A stretch of 5,481 nt of DNA from a virus. The notes beneath the pieces were generated by a model. It was given only the letters and a program-made list of their open reading frames with translations, was not told the DNA's origin and did no database searches. The stretch covers positions 1 through 5,481 of IMG/VR virus record IMGVR_UViG_3300045988_000486, one strand, 5' to 3'. Below, piece after piece: positions 205 to 5,481 of the stretch (position 1 is the first letter of the stretch; the number at the start of each line of letters is the position of its first letter). The position numbers and the translations under genes are program-made.

Positions 205-262
205 TACAGGCATACGCGCACGCGCGAAACACGCACGCACGCACGCCTGTATTTTTTATTTT
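205..262 (+). terminator. Candidate factor-independent terminator: closing stem around a repeat-rich interior, then T6-A-T4
   Basis: TACAGGC (205-211) pairs with GCCTGTA (245-251), a 7-bp stem. It is followed immediately by TTTTTTATTTT (252-262). The 33-nt interior (212-244) is larger than in canonical terminators, so this is tentative. Confidence 0.4.
210..246. repeat. Two alternating purine-pyrimidine tracts, including tetranucleotide repeat C(ACGC)4
   Basis: GCATACGCGCACGCGCG (210-226, 17 nt) and CACGCACGCACGCACGC (230-246, 17 nt) strictly alternate purine and pyrimidine. They are separated by AAA. A further 10-nt alternating tract, GCGTGTACGC, lies at 151-160. Confidence 0.85.
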
Positions 263-306
263 ATAATATAACTTGTTGTAGCCGTAGTAGTAGGGGCTGT
301 GGAAAA

Positions 307-471
307 GTTGAAAACCATAAATTTGAAACATAACATCGTAAAAAATAAGCATATTTCATTGTTGAAAGATTTGTTGAAAACTTGTTGAAATGTTGAAACA
401 CTTTACCAAACTAAAATCTATTGCGTATAATGATGTTGAAAAGTATGTGGAAAATGTTAAAAGCGTTGAAA
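307..471 (+). repeat. Iteron-like array of same-orientation (T)GTTGAAA repeats
   Basis: Exact GTTGAAA occurs at 307-313, 361-367, 373-379, 384-390, 392-398, 435-441 and 465-471. One-mismatch copies are at 322-328 (TTTGAAA), 447-453 (GTGGAAA), 456-462 (GTTAAAA), 494-500 (GTTGATT) and 692-698 (ATTGAAA). An inverted copy, GTTTCAAA, is at 583-590. Confidence 0.9.
402..431 (+). promoter_or_regulatory. Candidate sigma70-type promoter inside the repeat array
   Basis: There is a perfect -10 box TATAAT at 426-431. The -35 candidates are TTTACC (402-407, 18-nt spacer) or TTACCA (403-408, 17-nt spacer), each 4/6 to TTGACA. No gene follows directly, so its function is unclear. Confidence 0.3.
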
Positions 472-596
472 ACTCGCACAGCGAGCAAGGAAAGTTGATT
501 TAGCTGAGCTCCGCCATAGCTCCGCACAGCAAACGCTTGCGCGTAGCAGAATAAAGGAGCAGGGGCAGCAGCTGAAGAAAAAGTTTCAAAAACCTC

Positions 597-716: not shown

Positions 717-923
717 ATGTACGATAGAGCATATTATGAGCTGTATAAAGGATACAGAGGGCCGGAAACACCGGACGAATGTGAATACTTCATCCGAAAG
801 CTTTACAGACAGCTTAAAAAAGCGTATACTGTAGAAGAGGCGAAAGCCATCATCGAAGAAATCTACAAATACAGGAGCCAAAAGGCAGAAATGGAGTTGA
901 AACAGTGGCAATCATCAGTGTGA
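717..923 (+). CDS. Hypothetical small protein (68 aa, tyrosine-rich, predicted helical); no family recognised
   Basis: The ATG is preceded by AGGAG (706-710) with 6-nt spacing. It is the first ORF downstream of the extended -10 promoter. It is on the same strand and contiguous with the phage gene array. It has 10 Tyr in 68 residues. Confidence 0.55.
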   Translation: MYDRAYYELYKGYRGPETPDECEYFIRKLYRQLKKAYTVEEAKAIIEEIYKYRSQKAEMELKQWQSSV

Positions 924-1378: not shown

Positions 1379-1847
1379 GTTTCGGAGCGCGTACAGCGGA
1401 CAGGTAAGACATACGAGCCTGACCGGCAACGGCCGTGAACCTGAGTATGAGTACAAGGTAACGGAAGAAGGCCGGGAGCTGGTAAAAACCGGCGAAACAG
1501 ACGTCTATGCACTCATCCAGAGCCGTCTGGATGAAACCAAAATCGAAAACATCATCAAGCGGGCAACGTATGACCCGACTGCACTGGGCAGTCAGGACTG
1601 GCAGACCAGCGAGACGATGACCGATATTTCGGACGCACCGACGAACTACCACGAGTGGTATGGACGCATCAAGGACGCGGAAGCAGAGTTTGACAAGCTG
1701 CCCATCGAAGTCAAAAACAAGTGGGACAACGATGTAGAAAAATACATCATGGCCTATGGAACCCAAGAGTGGGCAGACAAAATGGGCATAGCAAAACAGA
1801 AAGCCGAAGCAGAAAAACCGGCTGAAAAAAGTGAGGTGAAAGAATGA
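1371..1847 (+). CDS. VP3: Internal scaffolding protein VP3 (158 aa)
   Basis: ATG 1371 is preceded by GAGGG (1358-1362). The stop overlaps the VP1 start (ATGA). The length, the position just before VP1 and the C-terminal pattern D.SD.P......A..EFDKLP.EVKNKWDND match gokushovirus VP3. The track ORF's ATG at 1152 is in-frame but would overlap the entire VP5-like gene. Confidence 0.85.
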   Translation: MSEFRSAYSGQVRHTSLTGNGREPEYEYKVTEEGRELVKTGETDVYALIQSRLDETKIENIIKRATYDPTALGSQDWQTSETMTDISDAPTNYHEWYGRIKDAEAEFDKLPIEVKNKWDNDVEKYIMAYGTQEWADKMGIAKQKAEAEKPAEKSEVKE

Positions 1848-3460
1848 ACCGCAACAGTGAATACAACTTTGCACAAAATCCGCAAGTCGGAGTAAGCCGC
1901 AGCCGATTCCAGCGCAACAGCGACAACAAAACGACCTTCAACACGGGCGACCTCATCCCAATCTATCTGGATGAGGTGTTACCGGGTGATACGCACCAAA
2001 TCGACGTTGCCTGTGTCATGCGAATGGCGACACCCATCTTCCCGGTAATGGACAACGCCTATTGCGACTTCTACTTTTTCTTTGTGCCGGACCGCTTGCT
2101 CTGGGAGCACTGGAAAGAGTTTATGGGTGAAAACAAGGAAACCGCATGGACACCTAAGACGGAGTACAGTGTGCCGCAAGTAACGGCACCGAAAGGCGGA
2201 TGGGAAGAAGGTACGCTGGCGGACTATCTGGGACTGCCTACCAAGGTCGAGGGCATCAGCGTAAGCGCTCTGCCCGGCCGAGCATACGGCCTAATCTACA
2301 ACGAGTGGTTTCGAAACCAGAACGTCACGCAGCCGACGCTCGTAGAAGTAACGGATGCGACCACGACCGGCAAAAACGATGGCAGCGCTACCAACGACAG
2401 TGCTATCACGTTGGCAAAACCTCTCAAGGCGGCGAAGGTGTTTGACTACTACACCGGAGCTTTGCCGGAACCGCAGAAAGGCGAACCAATTACAATTCCA
2501 TTGGCCGGAGACGCGCCAATCGTCGGCAAAAACGTCAATGATGGGGAAAACATCGAATACTCCCTACGGGTCGTTGACGGAGGAAATGTACGGGTGTCGG
2601 ATTTTTACATAAACGCACCGGACATAAAGTTCCCGAACGGCAGCACACGAGTACAGGACGAAAGCCAAAACGCATTCCTGTACGCAGACCTTGGCGGCGT
2701 CACGGCGGCGACCATCAACCAGCTCCGGCAGGCTTTCCAGATTCAGAAACTGCTCGAAAAAGATGCACGAGGCGGCACGAGATACCGCGAAGTATTGCGC
2801 GAACACTTCGGGGTTATCTCTCCTGACTCTCGTATGCAGATTCCGGAATATCTGGGCGGCTACAGACTGCCTATCAATGTATCTCAGGTTATCCAGACCT
2901 CTTCGACCGACGGCACGAGTCCGCTGGGCAACACAGCGGCGTTGAGTGTTACCACGATGAACAAACCTATGTTTACCAAGTCCTTTACGGAACACGGATT
3001 TATCATGGGACTCGCAGTGGTACGAACCGACCAAACCTATCAGCAGGGTATCGAGCGCATGTGGAGCCGCAAAGGCCGGTATGATTACTACTGGCCGGTA
3101 CTAGCAAACATCGGCGAGCAAGCCATCCTCAACAAAGAAATCTATGCACAGGGCAACGCAAAGGACGATGAAGCATTCGGCTATCAGGAAGCATGGGCCG
3201 ACTACAGGTACAAGCCCAGCAAAGTAACTGGGCTTTTCCGAAGCAACGCAGCACAGAGCCTCGATGCATGGCACTATGCACAGGACTACGACGCACTGCC
3301 TACTCTGAGCACGGCTTGGATGGAGCAGACCGACAGCGAAATGAAGAGAACACTGGCAGTGCAGAATCAGCCAGACTTCATCGCGGACTTCTACTTTATG
3401 AACAAAACAACCAGATGCATGCCGGTGTACAGCATTCCCGGCCTCATCGACCATCACTAA
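1844..3460 (+). CDS. VP1: Major capsid protein VP1 (phiX174 F-like jelly-roll), 538 aa
   Basis: The N-terminus has SRSRFQRNSDNKTTFNTGDLIPIYLDEVLPGDT, and the core has ARGGTRYREVLREHFGVISPDSRMQIPEYLGG. Both are hallmark Microviridae F/VP1 motifs. GAGGTG (1833-1838) lies 5 nt before the ATG. Confidence 0.97.
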   Translation: MNRNSEYNFAQNPQVGVSRSRFQRNSDNKTTFNTGDLIPIYLDEVLPGDTHQIDVACVMRMATPIFPVMDNAYCDFYFFFVPDRLLWEHWKEFMGENKETAWTPKTEYSVPQVTAPKGGWEEGTLADYLGLPTKVEGISVSALPGRAYGLIYNEWFRNQNVTQPTLVEVTDATTTGKNDGSATNDSAITLAKPLKAAKVFDYYTGALPEPQKGEPITIPLAGDAPIVGKNVNDGENIEYSLRVVDGGNVRVSDFYINAPDIKFPNGSTRVQDESQNAFLYADLGGVTAATINQLRQAFQIQKLLEKDARGGTRYREVLREHFGVISPDSRMQIPEYLGGYRLPINVSQVIQTSSTDGTSPLGNTAALSVTTMNKPMFTKSFTEHGFIMGLAVVRTDQTYQQGIERMWSRKGRYDYYWPVLANIGEQAILNKEIYAQGNAKDDEAFGYQEAWADYRYKPSKVTGLFRSNAAQSLDAWHYAQDYDALPTLSTAWMEQTDSEMKRTLAVQNQPDFIADFYFMNKTTRCMPVYSIPGLIDHH

Positions 3461-4421: not shown

Positions 4422-5444
4422 ATGAGCTGCGCAAGACCACTCATCAGAGTATACAATCCAAATGACCACAACATAACAGGGTCAATCATGACCTTGGAGA
4501 CGTACCGCGAAAGAACACACAATCCAACAGCAACTTATGAGAGTATCGCATACCGAACAGACGTAATGCTCCTACCATGCGGTAAATGTATCGGGTGCAG
4601 ACTCAGACAGCGGCAAGACTGGGAGACGCGAATGTTAATGGAGTCAAAAACACTGACGCCAGTGTGGTTTTTGACGCTGACGTGGAATCAAGAATATGTG
4701 CCGGGTATGGTAAGAGAAACAGGCGAAATTATAAGAGGTGCAGCGCATCAGTGGACGACCGGAGACGCACCGGAAGTGGTGCAAATTCTCCTACAAGAGG
4801 ACATGGTACGCTTTAACAAGAGGCTGAGGAAAAAACAAGAAACGTCCAATAAATGGGGCTTAGACCTGAGATATTTTTACTGTGGCGAATACGGCGAAAA
4901 CACGGGAAGACCGCATCATCACGGCATTTATTATGGTTTAGAGATACCAGACCTCAAGAAAAAAAGGGGTGATAATCCGTACTTCGAAAGCGAAGAGATA
5001 AACAAAATATGGGGCATGGGCAACGTCATCATCGCAGAGGCATCACCGGAAACGATGGCCTATGTAGCAGGGTATGTAACCAAAAAGACATACGGAAACG
5101 ACAACAAAAGGTATAGGGAGTTAGGTTTAACACCGCCGTACTGTTGCATGTCAAGAAATCCGGGTCTGGGCTATGACTACTACACGAGCCATAAAGAGCA
5201 GATGTACGCAGATGATGGGCTATATTTTAACGGTAAAAAAAGGCCGATACCGAGGTACTTTGATAAAAAATACGAAGAAGAAAACCCGAAAAGACTATGG
5301 AGCATAAAAGAAAAACGACAGTCGAGCGCAATAAACGCCTTAAAACTCAAAATGGCCAATACAGGATTGACCATAGAGCAGGAAGCAAAAGTAGAGGAAG
5401 AGACAAAGAAACAGAGGTTTAGAAAAGCCAGAGGGCTATTATAG
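4422..5444 (+). CDS. VP4: Rolling-circle replication initiator VP4 (HUH endonuclease, phiX174 A-like), 340 aa
   Basis: GGAGG (4410-4414) lies 7 nt upstream, and the ATG directly follows the VP2 TAA. Motif 1 is FLTLTW (4668-4685), the HUH motif is PHHHGIYY (4911-4934), and the two-tyrosine motif is YVAGYVTKK (5061-5087; compare phiX174 A YVAKYVNKK). An N-terminal LPCGKCIGCR cysteine cluster is typical of gokushovirus VP4. Confidence 0.96.
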   Translation: MSCARPLIRVYNPNDHNITGSIMTLETYRERTHNPTATYESIAYRTDVMLLPCGKCIGCRLRQRQDWETRMLMESKTLTPVWFLTLTWNQEYVPGMVRETGEIIRGAAHQWTTGDAPEVVQILLQEDMVRFNKRLRKKQETSNKWGLDLRYFYCGEYGENTGRPHHHGIYYGLEIPDLKKKRGDNPYFESEEINKIWGMGNVIIAEASPETMAYVAGYVTKKTYGNDNKRYRELGLTPPYCCMSRNPGLGYDYYTSHKEQMYADDGLYFNGKKRPIPRYFDKKYEEENPKRLWSIKEKRQSSAINALKLKMANTGLTIEQEAKVEEETKKQRFRKARGLL

Positions 5445-5481
5445 TGTCAGTGGGCCTAATCCTATCAAGAAGAGGATTAGG
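5405..5481. repeat. Terminal direct repeat, copy 2 (identical to 1-77)
   Basis: Same sequence as bases 1-77. It contains the VP4 3' end and the 5' arm, loop and part of the 3' arm of the 46-82 hairpin. Confidence 0.95.

Follow-up and report, generated by a model that had tools for sequence, protein, structure and literature searches.

The Microviridae serve as the textbook example of rolling-circle replication driven by Rep, in which DnaA has no role, and we know of no precedent in this family for a DnaA-dependent step. The origin elements of small circular single-stranded DNA replicons, such as the 30-nt gene-A origin of phiX174 and the iterons of CRESS-DNA viruses and geminiviruses, are read by the replicon's own HUH Rep. 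The plasmid and prophage origins P1 oriR, pSC101, F and RK2 combine DnaA boxes with Rep iterons. In the basal unwinding system of bacterial oriC (Richardson 2016, 2019; Pelliciari 2021, 2023), represented in B. subtilis by incC boxes 6/7, DnaA-trios and an AT-rich 27-mer, a GC spacer of 4 bp on average (Pelliciari 2021) lies between the trios and the boxes. Under the published rules for this system, the first box may deviate from TTATCCACA or the species box at no more than 2 positions and the second at no more than 4, the spacer may measure 0-16 nt, some 4 nt of it GC-rich, and at least 3 NAN triplets (consensus 3'-GAT-5') are required. Host-protein sites have also been described on phages: conserved, ordered DnaA boxes and variant boxes occupy non-coding DNA in the injection-stop region of T5-like phages (bioRxiv 10.1101/866236), and 0A boxes are found on the small lytic Firmicute phages phi29 and Nf (PMC2731898). 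Literature searches that paired the Microviridae or gokushoviruses with DnaA or its boxes yielded nothing relevant, searches on the box strings presented below returned primer lists only, and one for CRISPR-based links between gokushoviruses and Oscillospiraceae hosts gave nothing informative; as the initial annotation had remarked, an array of this kind is not a standard described feature of the Microviridae.

The window analysed here (5,481 nt) is a circular gokushovirus genome of 5404 nt with 77 nt of terminal redundancy, and its long non-coding region spans positions 47-716. Exact GTTGAAA occurs eight times in the window, always on the + strand (307, 361, 373, 384, 392, 435, 465 and 896), seven of the copies lying within 307-471. 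Our recount agreed with the initial annotation on these seven copies and the extra one at 896, on the start-to-start spacings of 12/11/8 and 12/9/9, on the 9-mer GTTGAAACA common to 392-400 and 896-904 and on an inverted copy, found at 584-590. The one-mismatch copies it listed at 322, 447, 456 and 692 were also recovered, but the one at 494 (GTTGATT) has two mismatches. A one-mismatch GTGGAAA at 299, which had been overlooked, is the most informative site. In 200 dinucleotide-preserving shuffles GTTGAAA was found 0.85 times on average and 4 times at most. One-mismatch copies are just mildly enriched over the whole window (27 observed, 16.7 expected), so that the signal resides in the clustered exact copies. 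With its flanks the motif reads TGT[T/G]GAAAA, the reverse complement of TTTTC[A/C]ACA. It had been suggested that the copies are redundant -35-like TTGAAA hexamers or phased A-tracts that bend the DNA; TTGAAA does resemble TTGACA, the copy at 308 is part of a weak promoter-like match, and every unit ends in an A-run. We give these readings, together with chance, a negligible probability: none of the 200 shuffles reached the observed count, conservation extends beyond the hexamer to a 9-mer that has T at -1 and G at position 2, and the chromosomal origins described below, a counterpart that neither the -35 nor the bending reading explains, contain these units in both orientations.

When compared with the DnaA-box consensus TTWTNCACA, as used in PMC7561715, TGTGGAAAA (298 and 446) is an exact match and TGTTGAAAA is off at one position. 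The first of these sites, at 298-306 on the + strand, is the reverse complement of TTTTCCACA and has 1 mismatch to TTATCCACA. It is followed 8 nt further on by a second tandem box, AGTTGAAAA, at 306-314 on the + strand (core 307-313), which has 3 mismatches to the E. coli consensus and matches the host variant introduced below. The two 9-mers share one base at this pitch, which host origins show too, and the tandem pair is kept in all phage modules. About 45 nt of A-rich spacer lead to the second cluster. This spacer contains a weak box-like TTTGAAA with one mismatch (322-328, + strand), whose membership of the array is doubtful because it is not kept as a box in other clades. Cluster 2 (360-399, + strand) is made of TGTTGAAAG, TGTTGAAAA, TGTTGAAAT and TGTTGAAAC, with cores at 361, 373, 384 and 392; GTTGAAAgnttTGTTGAAAacttGTTGAA(A/T)tGTTGAAA is conserved there across clades, and the cluster is similar to GTTGAAAgattGTTGAAAaGTTGAAAa of the chromosomal origin L175. 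Cluster 3 (434-472, + strand) comprises TGTTGAAAA, TGTGGAAAA, TGTTAAAAG and CGTTGAAAA, with cores at 435, 447, 456 and 465, of which TGTGGAAAA (447) is a perfect box and TGTTAAAAG (456) has one mismatch. Its counterpart in other clades is GTGGAAAacctGTTGAAAgtGTTGAAAgtGTTGAAAa, and GTGGAAAacctGTTGAAA is found also in the Ruminococcus origin L204. At homologous box positions, relatives carry TGTGGATAA, TGTGGAAAA or TGTTGATAA, some of them adding an inverted TTTTCCACA after the array.

The DNA ahead of the proximal boxes has a distinctive composition. An all-A/T tract of 21 nt, ATTTTTTATTTTATAATATAA, occupies positions 251-271 (100% A/T in 20-nt windows) and is a candidate DNA unwinding element; its 5' part is also the T-run following a hairpin at 201-255. 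Forty-eight aligned phage modules and the chromosomal origins L175, L204, L135 and L246 all have an A/T-rich stretch in this position. The triplets TTG TTG TAG CCG TAG TAG TAG, of the DnaA-trio type, follow at 273-293 on the + strand, with three consecutive TAG at 285-293 and an extra one at 279-281. CTTGTTGTAG-NNG-TAGTAGTAG is almost invariant in 48 unique phage modules. A GC cluster, GGGC, separates the last triplet from the first box (294-297); the spacer measures 4-5 nt in all phage modules and is variable yet G-rich, and it reads GGGG in L175, L135 and L246. The composite TAGTAGTAG-N2-8-GTKGAWA is found once in the window and in none of 200 shuffles. Read 5' to 3', the succession of A/T tract, triplets, GC spacer and tandem boxes is that of the bacterial basal unwinding system, and the layout at 251-314 agrees with its published rules in boxes, spacer, trios and A/T region.

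The likeness to the B. subtilis system extends to the orientation of the parts, to the number of 5'-TAG-3' triplets (at least 3), the spacer of about 4 nt, the two tandem boxes and the distal clusters, and to the strand opposite the triplets, whose 5'-TnnT-3' repeats are of the type of the DnaD recognition element. The orientation of the proximal box towards the trios is also that of the origins L135, L175, L204 and L246, of the canonical modules on other viral contigs, of E. coli oriC (DUE-R1) and of C. difficile oriC2. Since TAG triplets and an A/T tract adjoin it, the array forms part of an oriC-type unwinding module, and array, triplets, spacer and A/T tract together very probably constitute a DnaA-box/trio module. 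The earlier suggestion that the array is origin-like agrees with this oriC-type layout. The alternative of operators for a host protein came closest to the truth, DnaA being the likely protein, but it missed the TAG triplets and the A/T tract. Unlike the basal unwinding system, the phage module is located on a 5.4-kb single-stranded DNA phage genome, its boxes are mostly TTTTCAACA instead of TTATCCACA and point nearly all one way, and its trio run is extended by two TTG triplets; its function is a prediction. It lies between VP4 and small ORFs and not next to dnaA and dnaN, and it therefore resembles or mimics an oriC module rather than being a chromosomal origin. The phiX174 origin contains CAACTTG^A, which AACTTG ahead of the trios resembles. 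As a Rep nick site this string was rejected: it is missing from relatives that lack the module and inverts along with it, and is thus part of the module rather than a general-purpose Rep site.

A chromosomal counterpart emerged when 185,579 species genomes were scanned for GTTGAAA triples with close spacing. At least five dnaA-dnaN spacers carry such a triple (L135, L175, L204, L217 and L246), all from Oscillospirales among the matches listed, with host assignment from metagenome-assembled genomes; the flanking dnaA, dnaN, rnpA, yidC and jag genes were identified by Pfam. The order in L135, L175, L204 and L246 is A/T-rich stretch, triplets of the TAG type, 4-nt spacer (e.g. GGGG), then TGTTGAAAC with a second box, and many more boxes lie beyond this trio-proximal pair. 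TAG is repeated 4-6 times at the triplet position of host origins, with five TAG or, in L246, CAG TAG TAG TAA TAG. L217 has a TAG run without an adjoining GTTGAAA-type box, the nearest one being about 135 nt away. The sites at these loci concentrate inside the dnaA-dnaN spacer (21/33 in L175, 32/40 in L204 and 22/27 in L246), and the L246 origin contains no box type other than this variant. Host (n=87) and phage (n=88) sites have similar flanks, with T at -1 in 86% of both, T rather than G at core position 3 in 83% and 84%, respectively, and A at +1 in 70% and 60%; box spacing peaks at 9 and 11 in both sets. All five host DnaA proteins share the changes P423 to V/A, T435 to S and H439 to Y, which affect three of the six E. 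coli base-contact positions in a list reportedly given by Fujikawa in 2003. The comparison thus exposes TTTTCAACA as what appears to be a previously undescribed Oscillospirales DnaA-box variant, with shared changes in the recognition helix. The dnaA-dnaN origins of Oscillospiraceae, Ruminococcus and Negativibacillus resemble the phage module in box variant, flank profile and 9/11-nt spacing, and L175, L204, L135 and L246 share with it the junction of TAG run, G-rich spacer and TGTTGAAA; sub-arrangements such as GTGGAAAacctGTTGAAA are common to host and phage. The host origins differ in being longer, with much longer A/T regions and boxes in both orientations, and in lacking the phage-specific AACTTGTTG ahead of the trios. 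That the phage uses TGT[T/G]GAAAA, the box variant of gut Oscillospiraceae and Ruminococcus, within the layout of their chromosomal origin suggests that these are its hosts, and that the phage may recruit the host initiation machinery. The T5 variant TTATCAACA has the same C6-to-A change; however, T5 is a dsDNA phage of Enterobacteria, and its boxes are paired in inverted repeats without trios or DUE and are proposed to serve DNA injection rather than replication.

The module is widespread among gokushoviruses. We collected 99 modules (96 unique) from phages whose Rep proteins are 32-97% identical, and the triplets and proximal boxes are nearly invariant among them. At VP1 identities of 77% or more, nearly every complete relative has it, while it is missing from related clades with VP1 53-57% identical; a search of these module-less relatives for arrays of another box variant found none. 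The expectation of an orientation-consistent protein-binding array conserved in relatives has thus received strongly positive support. In KT264799 the distal clusters are lost, and the A/T tract, the triplets and two boxes are kept. Two other apparent deletion variants (L005 and L282) were discarded as artefacts, being linear or partial contigs broken inside the repeats, and the evidence from deletion variants is limited to KT264799. In one gokushovirus clade the module is inverted relative to the genes. The + strand at 245-480 folds worse than shuffles (z = +1.3), and a designed single-strand fold was rejected; together with the clade-level inversion this indicates action on duplex DNA. The window has no A-site-like hairpin with a duplex box (TGTGGAAAA...TTTTCCACA), which is confined to some relatives (L001, L003 and L026). 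A coding role of the array region was rejected as well, since the ORFs at 113-352 and 261-401 (both on the - strand) are unconserved and relatives differ by non-triplet indels. An Rfam search of the whole window for known RNAs (E <= 1) returned only a spurious miRNA match to a CG/CA hairpin.

These comparisons bear on the proposal that the repeats are iterons of the kind that theta plasmids and CRESS-DNA viruses have, bound here by Rep (VP4). They are one-way direct repeats in a non-coding region beside rep and near a stable hairpin, as iterons could be, and like the elements of phiX174, CRESS-DNA viruses and geminiviruses they would be origin elements of a small circular single-stranded DNA replicon. 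Iterons should nevertheless co-vary with their cognate Rep, whereas the motif is constant over the full range of Rep identity, and its flanks and spacing are the same even in phages with Rep only 32-47% identical. The motif moreover fills the dnaA-dnaN origins of Oscillospiraceae, which have no microvirus Rep. A Rep-iteron array is accordingly very improbable, the module following a host origin and not a phage Rep. With P1 oriR, pSC101, F and RK2 it shares the situation of a mobile replicon with host DnaA boxes beside an A/T-rich region, but these origins need the iterons of their own Rep, with DnaA as a helper, whereas the phage has a chromosomal layout with trios and no separate iterons were seen. 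A better candidate for a Rep-specific site than the array module is the stable hairpin at 46-82 on the + strand, just 3' of the VP4 stop and outside the array proper (loop TATCAAGAAG; -16.3 kcal/mol, z = -7.9). Its TATCAAG loop is kept across clades while its stems covary, and it may be a strand-specific element, either a Rep nick site or a terminator.

Spore formation is common among Oscillospiraceae, and the units might be read as variant 0A boxes (TGTCGAA) bound by Spo0A~P, which would silence or arrest the phage in sporulating cells and trap its genome in the spore, as happens with phi29 and Nf. TGTTGAA differs from TGTCGAA by one mismatch, two TGTtGAA boxes of phage Nf were footprinted by Spo0A (PMC2731898), and the oriC of B. 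subtilis has 0A boxes that overlap its DnaA boxes, initiation there being blocked by Spo0A~P (PMC5295017). The modules would then be comparable to the host-regulator sites of phi29 and Nf, yet TGTCGAA is not found once in the 96 unique phage modules (27.8 kb) or the five host origins (4 kb), position 4 is always T or G, and the DnaA-box consensus TTWTNCACA is matched perfectly at 165 sites. The pitch is also wrong for a Spo0A dimer: boxes 3 bp apart, i.e. a 10-nt pitch, are rare in hosts and absent in phage arrays, whose pitches are 8, 9, 11 and 12 but never 10. Finally, the sites hold the DnaA-defining, trio-proximal position in four of the five host origins (L135, L175, L204 and L246). Spo0A operators are for these reasons an improbable account, weaker than DnaA boxes, although Spo0A may cross-bind alongside DnaA.

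DnaA is also a transcription factor in bacteria, and its boxes could flank phage promoters so that early expression tracks the replication status of the host. Both promoter-like sites reported earlier, at 402-431 and 597-625, are indeed consensus matches. The first, TTTACC-18-TATAAT on the + strand, has cluster 2 on one side and cluster 3 on the other, the latter extending over the predicted start region. Triple GTTGAAA sites are likewise present upstream of genes in Oscillospiraceae genomes; the small divergent gene that follows triple boxes in five of these genomes matched no Pfam family. The -10 element of the 402-431 site is however kept only in the closest relatives and is missing there in other clades, which retain all boxes. 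Transcription control also leaves the triplets and the A/T tract unexplained, and the module occurs in both orientations relative to the genes. As the purpose of the module we find it quite improbable; 402-431 is possibly a DnaA-modulated promoter specific to the window's clade. The isolated GTTGAAA at 896-902 (+ strand), 424 nt from the array and coding, is retained in L001 and L002 together with the conserved 68-aa ORF that contains it, and is probably unrelated to the array.

Box clusters titrate DnaA in bacteria, as at datA and the B. subtilis DnaA-box clusters (review PMC5295017). About ten boxes per replicative form could in the same way act as a decoy or a sensor for host DnaA, with no replication start at the module: host initiation would be blocked or delayed, or phage development tied to the DnaA-ATP level. 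This reading draws on the same box evidence as an unwinding site, titration would follow automatically from amplification of the replicative form, and the phage boxes all point one way where host origins have mixed orientations. A pure sink, though, has no need of triplets, GC spacer and A/T tract at exact origin geometry, and these are the most conserved part of the module and the part that KT264799 kept. A titration locus is a box cluster without unwinding apparatus; here the cluster is joined to trios and an A/T tract. We therefore regard a decoy as unlikely. The reading that we prefer, and that we hold to be somewhat better than an even bet, is that the array comprises about ten host DnaA sites which, with the triplets, the spacer and the A/T tract, give the phage genome a basal unwinding system of the oriC type; the chance that the module works as an actual origin or unwinding site is, in our estimate, only slightly above even.

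The sequence architecture is observed, as are its conservation and its resemblance to chromosomal origins; from these we infer how DnaA binding and unwinding might proceed and lead to replication. The substrate would be the double-stranded replicative form, on which DnaA-ATP would occupy the boxes, the distal clusters at 360-399 and 434-472 serving to increase the local DnaA concentration. DnaA on the proximal boxes (298-314) would seed an oligomer extending onto the TAG triplets of the + strand, and this oligomer would stretch and melt the adjacent A/T tract. The opened DNA would then admit host helicase loaders of the DnaD/DnaB/DnaI type found in Firmicutes, leading to replication of the replicative form, and may also let the phage HUH Rep reach single-stranded DNA near the neighbouring hairpin. 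Several points weigh against this scheme. Binding of DnaA to TTTTCAACA is predicted from sequence, and C6 is the least tolerant position of the E. coli DnaA box. At 21 nt the A/T tract is short and shares sequence with a terminator T-run, the proximal boxes overlap by one base at their 8-nt pitch, clades with VP1 53-57% identical manage without the module, and titration or regulatory roles would need the same boxes.

The presence of a host-origin module in about 100 gut gokushoviruses implies that these phages may have an undescribed dependence on the host initiator, or manipulate it, and the module makes their replication and persistence in gut Firmicutes testable. The box variant would also assign a host (Oscillospiraceae/Ruminococcus) to phages without a cultured one. 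More tentatively, and in our view rather doubtfully, many mammalian-gut gokushoviruses might carry a working copy of their host's origin, the duplex form being, for at least part of the cycle, a DnaA-dependent mini-chromosome and not only an intermediate of Rep rolling circle. If so, such phages could be carried like plasmids, in step with the host cell cycle, and because the box variant is one base away from the Spo0A box, it could permit shut-down and entrapment in the spore. From this variant, the host lineage of uncultured microviruses could then be predicted by sequence alone.

The window is a circular gokushovirus genome with a unit of 5404 nt and an exact terminal redundancy of 77 nt (1-77 = 5405-5481), its nearest GenBank records being gut gokushoviruses of dog, human and pig (84-91% identity). 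Genes are found on the + strand only: VP4/Rep (4422-5444, continuing round to 1-46), VP5, VP3, VP1 (1844-3460) and VP2, all identified by Pfam, and a 68-aa ORF (717-923); the non-coding region spans 47-716. Exact GTTGAAA occurs eight times, on the + strand only, with seven copies at 307-471 and one at 896, compared to a mean of 0.85 and a maximum of 4 in 200 dinucleotide-preserving shuffles. The copy positions and spacings reported in the initial annotation were reproduced, except that its site at 494 has two mismatches and that a GTGGAAA at 299 had been overlooked. With its flanks the repeat unit reads TGT[T/G]GAAAA, and its reverse complement, TTTTC[A/C]ACA, is judging by sequence very probably a DnaA box. 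TGTGGAAAA, present at 298-306 and 446-454, is an exact fit to TTWTNCACA, the consensus applied to clostridial origins (PMC7561715), and TGTTGAAAA is one position off. In relatives, the homologous positions are occupied by TGTGGATAA (a perfect E. coli-type box), TGTGGAAAA or TGTTGATAA, and an inverted TTTTCCACA lies directly past the array end in several of them. Position 4 of the unit is T or G only in 96 unique phage modules and five bacterial origins.

Directly 5' of the first box we found a GGGC spacer (294-297), preceded by the triplets TTG TTG TAG CCG TAG TAG TAG (273-293) and by a pure A/T stretch of 21 nt (251-271). The basal unwinding system, which was defined in B. subtilis and is a predicted feature of most bacterial origins (Richardson 2016, 2019; Pelliciari 2021, 2023), has this same order of A/T-rich DNA, trios, GC spacer (about 4 nt) and two tandem boxes, as does C. 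difficile oriC2 (PMC7561715). The window has a single instance of the trio-spacer-box composite, and 200 shuffles gave none. The identical order is seen at the E. coli DUE-R1 junction, in a sequence which we take to be that of the junction and which is present as a single-copy locus in all but one of 5426 E. coli genomes (5425). Opposite the trios, the other strand has TnnT repeats, the DnaD recognition sequence in B. subtilis.

GenBank relatives keep the module with place and orientation unchanged, among them MT135268 at only 59% Rep identity; it is present in 44 GenBank gokushovirus records and annotated in none of them. IMG/VR was scanned for three closely spaced GTTGAAA, with figures that are lower bounds: the matches listed include at least about 55 gokushovirus contigs, which share 32-97% Rep identity and 44-87% VP1 identity with the window. 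All of these start with an A/T tract, CTTGTTGTAG-NNG-TAGTAGTAG, a variable G-rich stretch of 4-5 nt and two tandem boxes, and in the common layout two four-box clusters follow, the first behind about 55 nt of A-rich spacer and the second after a further spacer of about 40 nt. The initial annotation had proposed conservation in relatives as a check of the motif, and over 48 aligned unique modules the proximal boxes and triplets are indeed nearly invariant, whereas the spacer varies. Relatives were also gathered by VP1 alone, which gave a sample free of motif bias: at VP1 identities of 77% or more, virtually all complete genomes have the module, which is missing in a 53-57% clade and again present in some 47-50% clades. 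No comparable array was found in the module-less relatives checked. From this architecture and conservation, both established computationally, we consider it highly probable that the array is a DnaA-box/trio module, to which DnaA is predicted to bind.

KT264799 has lost both distal clusters, and what remains is the A/T tract with the trios and two boxes. The same boxes would also serve a DnaA decoy or sensor, but this role appears improbable, as it leaves unexplained why conservation is highest in the trios and A/T tract and why KT264799 kept them. DnaA-controlled transcription may operate at the clade-specific promoter-like site at 402-431, but it does not cover the module as a whole. In one clade with Rep about 32-35% identical (L018, L029, L054, L059, L067, L088, L098, L125), the whole module lies opposite the gene strand, just upstream of VP4, with an inverted TTTTCCACA ending the array. 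Moreover, 245-480 folded as single-stranded DNA shows less structure than shuffles. On these two grounds we argue that the module would act on duplex DNA, in the replicative form, and not on the packaged strand. In another contig (L096) the proximal unit (GTGGAAAaGTTGAAAagtaataaattttaacgatgaaacgaaaattaaaag) is present as a tandem duplication, and a 13-kb 'Bacteriophage sp.' from human faeces (MT836079.1, 8485-8547) has the A/T-tract and trio part only (81% over 64 nt).

The same three-copy pattern was searched in one genome per species for 185,579 species, again yielding lower bounds. The matches listed were enriched for Oscillospiraceae, Ruminococcus and Negativibacillus, and at least five lie inside the dnaA-dnaN spacer of metagenome-assembled genomes (L175, 1586-2329; L204, 6478-7760; L246, 1628-2496; L135, 1-420; L217, 2831-3540), the flanking dnaA, dnaN, rnpA, yidC and jag being identified by Pfam and tblastn. 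The initial annotation had proposed iterons for the phage Rep, a reading contradicted both by these chromosomal copies and by the lack of co-variation with Rep. The L175 junction, ...tatatgttTAGTAGTAGTAGTAGGGGG-TGTTGAAAC-TGTTGAAAA..., exemplifies four of the five spacers (L175, L204, L135, L246), where dozens more GTTGAAA, GTGGAAA, TTTCAAC and TTTTCCACA sites follow; in L217, TAATGG comes after the TAG run and the first GTTGAAA-type boxes are about 135 nt off. Sites inside the spacer make up 21 of the 33 in the fetched locus for L175, 32 of 40 for L204 and 22 of 27 for L246. The L246 spacer, indicated to be an origin by its position and trios, contains 23 GTTGAAA and no GTGGAAA; if it is an origin, GTTGAAA must therefore be the L246 DnaA box. 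Among 87 host-origin and 88 phage-module sites, respectively, T occupies -1 in 86% of each, core position 3 is T instead of G in 83% and 84%, and A is at +1 in 70% and 60%, with box pitch maxima of 9 and 11 nt in both. The dominant form in the five host spacers is TTTTCAACA (~83%), with TTTTCCACA in the minority, and we found no literature description of this Oscillospirales variant. The DnaA recognition helix reads RDHSTxVY in these hosts versus RDHTTVxH in E. coli and B. subtilis, and P423 -> V/A, T435 -> S and H439 -> Y are common to all five host proteins. Fujikawa in 2003 reportedly counted positions 423, 435 and 439 among those contacting bases in the E. coli DnaA complex. The substitutions are consistent with, though no proof of, a shifted box specificity.

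Spo0A sites are in principle a serious candidate for these repeats: TGTtGAA boxes of phage Nf were footprinted by Spo0A (PMC2731898) and 0A boxes overlap DnaA boxes at B. subtilis oriC (PMC5295017). However, phage modules and host origins contain no Spo0A consensus TGTCGAA versus 165 perfect DnaA boxes, no phage array shows the 10-nt pitch of Spo0A dimers, which hosts too show only rarely, and sites occupy the trio-proximal position in L135, L175, L204 and L246, four of the five host origins; together these make the Spo0A explanation very unlikely. Spo0A may cross-bind in addition to DnaA, which would be interesting. Triple GTTGAAA sites were also seen in Oscillospiraceae 65-270 nt upstream of a conserved divergent small gene (L143, L151, L161, L181, L188), whose product of 84-115 aa (M[IV][KR]G[VIT][NS][KR]xI[IV]E[IV]..., hydrophobic C-terminus) matched no Pfam family in these five genomes, and in the gyrB-gyrA spacer of L170; they look like a DnaA (or Spo0A) regulon.

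Directly after the VP4 stop lies a very stable hairpin (46-82; -16.3 kcal/mol, z = -7.9), whose loop TATCAAG(A/T)A is kept at homologous sites (L001-L335) and whose stems show covariation from clade to clade (GGGCCTAATCC, AGCCCAGTACC, CAGCCAAGTAAC). The distance from this hairpin to the trios is 48-392 nt, and Rep nick site, rolling-circle origin and terminator are its candidate roles. In the inverted-module clade, a related hairpin recognized by eye stays oriented with the gene strand and is again next to the module's A/T end. An optional insert (83-255), missing from L001, L003 and L007, contains the hairpin GGGGGGAC-AAAA-GTCCCCCC (126-151) and, at 201-255, an imperfect hairpin in which CG and CA alternate, followed by a T-run; this second hairpin looks like a terminator and is prone to form Z-DNA or a cruciform. 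Most other clades have similar CGCGCACGCGCG hairpins ahead of the A/T tract. Within 473-560, a small hairpin directly past the last box (CTCGC-ACA-GCGAG, or GCGC(GC)-ACA-GCGC in other clades) is followed by a conserved GC-rich stretch (GCTGAGCTCCGC...), which in another group of relatives is replaced by a conserved block unrelated to it, aaggcagtccggcgagcgaaacc...cacgtcatgctcttcgcacggcgcaccgcgcc.

P1 and pSC101 are among the mobile elements known to carry DnaA boxes. In T5-like phages, DnaA boxes form an ordered array that includes the same C6-to-A variant as the window boxes (bioRxiv 10.1101/866236). No paper connecting Microviridae or gokushoviruses with DnaA boxes was found in a search of largely open-access literature. 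Modules with canonical trios and TGTGGATAA occur as well in IMG/VR contigs that are not microviruses (L251, L259, L260, L264, L269, L271, L274, L275). These larger viral contigs carry an A/T tract, TAGTAGTAG(TAG), GGGG/C, TGTGGATAA(TGTGGATAA) and more TGTGGATAA boxes, and their fetched stretches contain no dnaA. Phages in general may mimic origins more widely, or the contigs may be mis-binned plasmid or host DNA.

The phage module has all the sequence features of an oriC basal unwinding system and would work like one, but unlike oriC it is not a chromosomal origin. We slightly favour a true origin or unwinding role, in which host DnaA-ATP would occupy the boxes on the replicative form, the two proximal boxes would nucleate a DnaA oligomer extending onto the TAG trios and the A/T tract would then melt. 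On the opened DNA, host helicase loaders would begin replication; alternatively, opening would give the phage Rep access to single-stranded DNA by the neighbouring hairpin.
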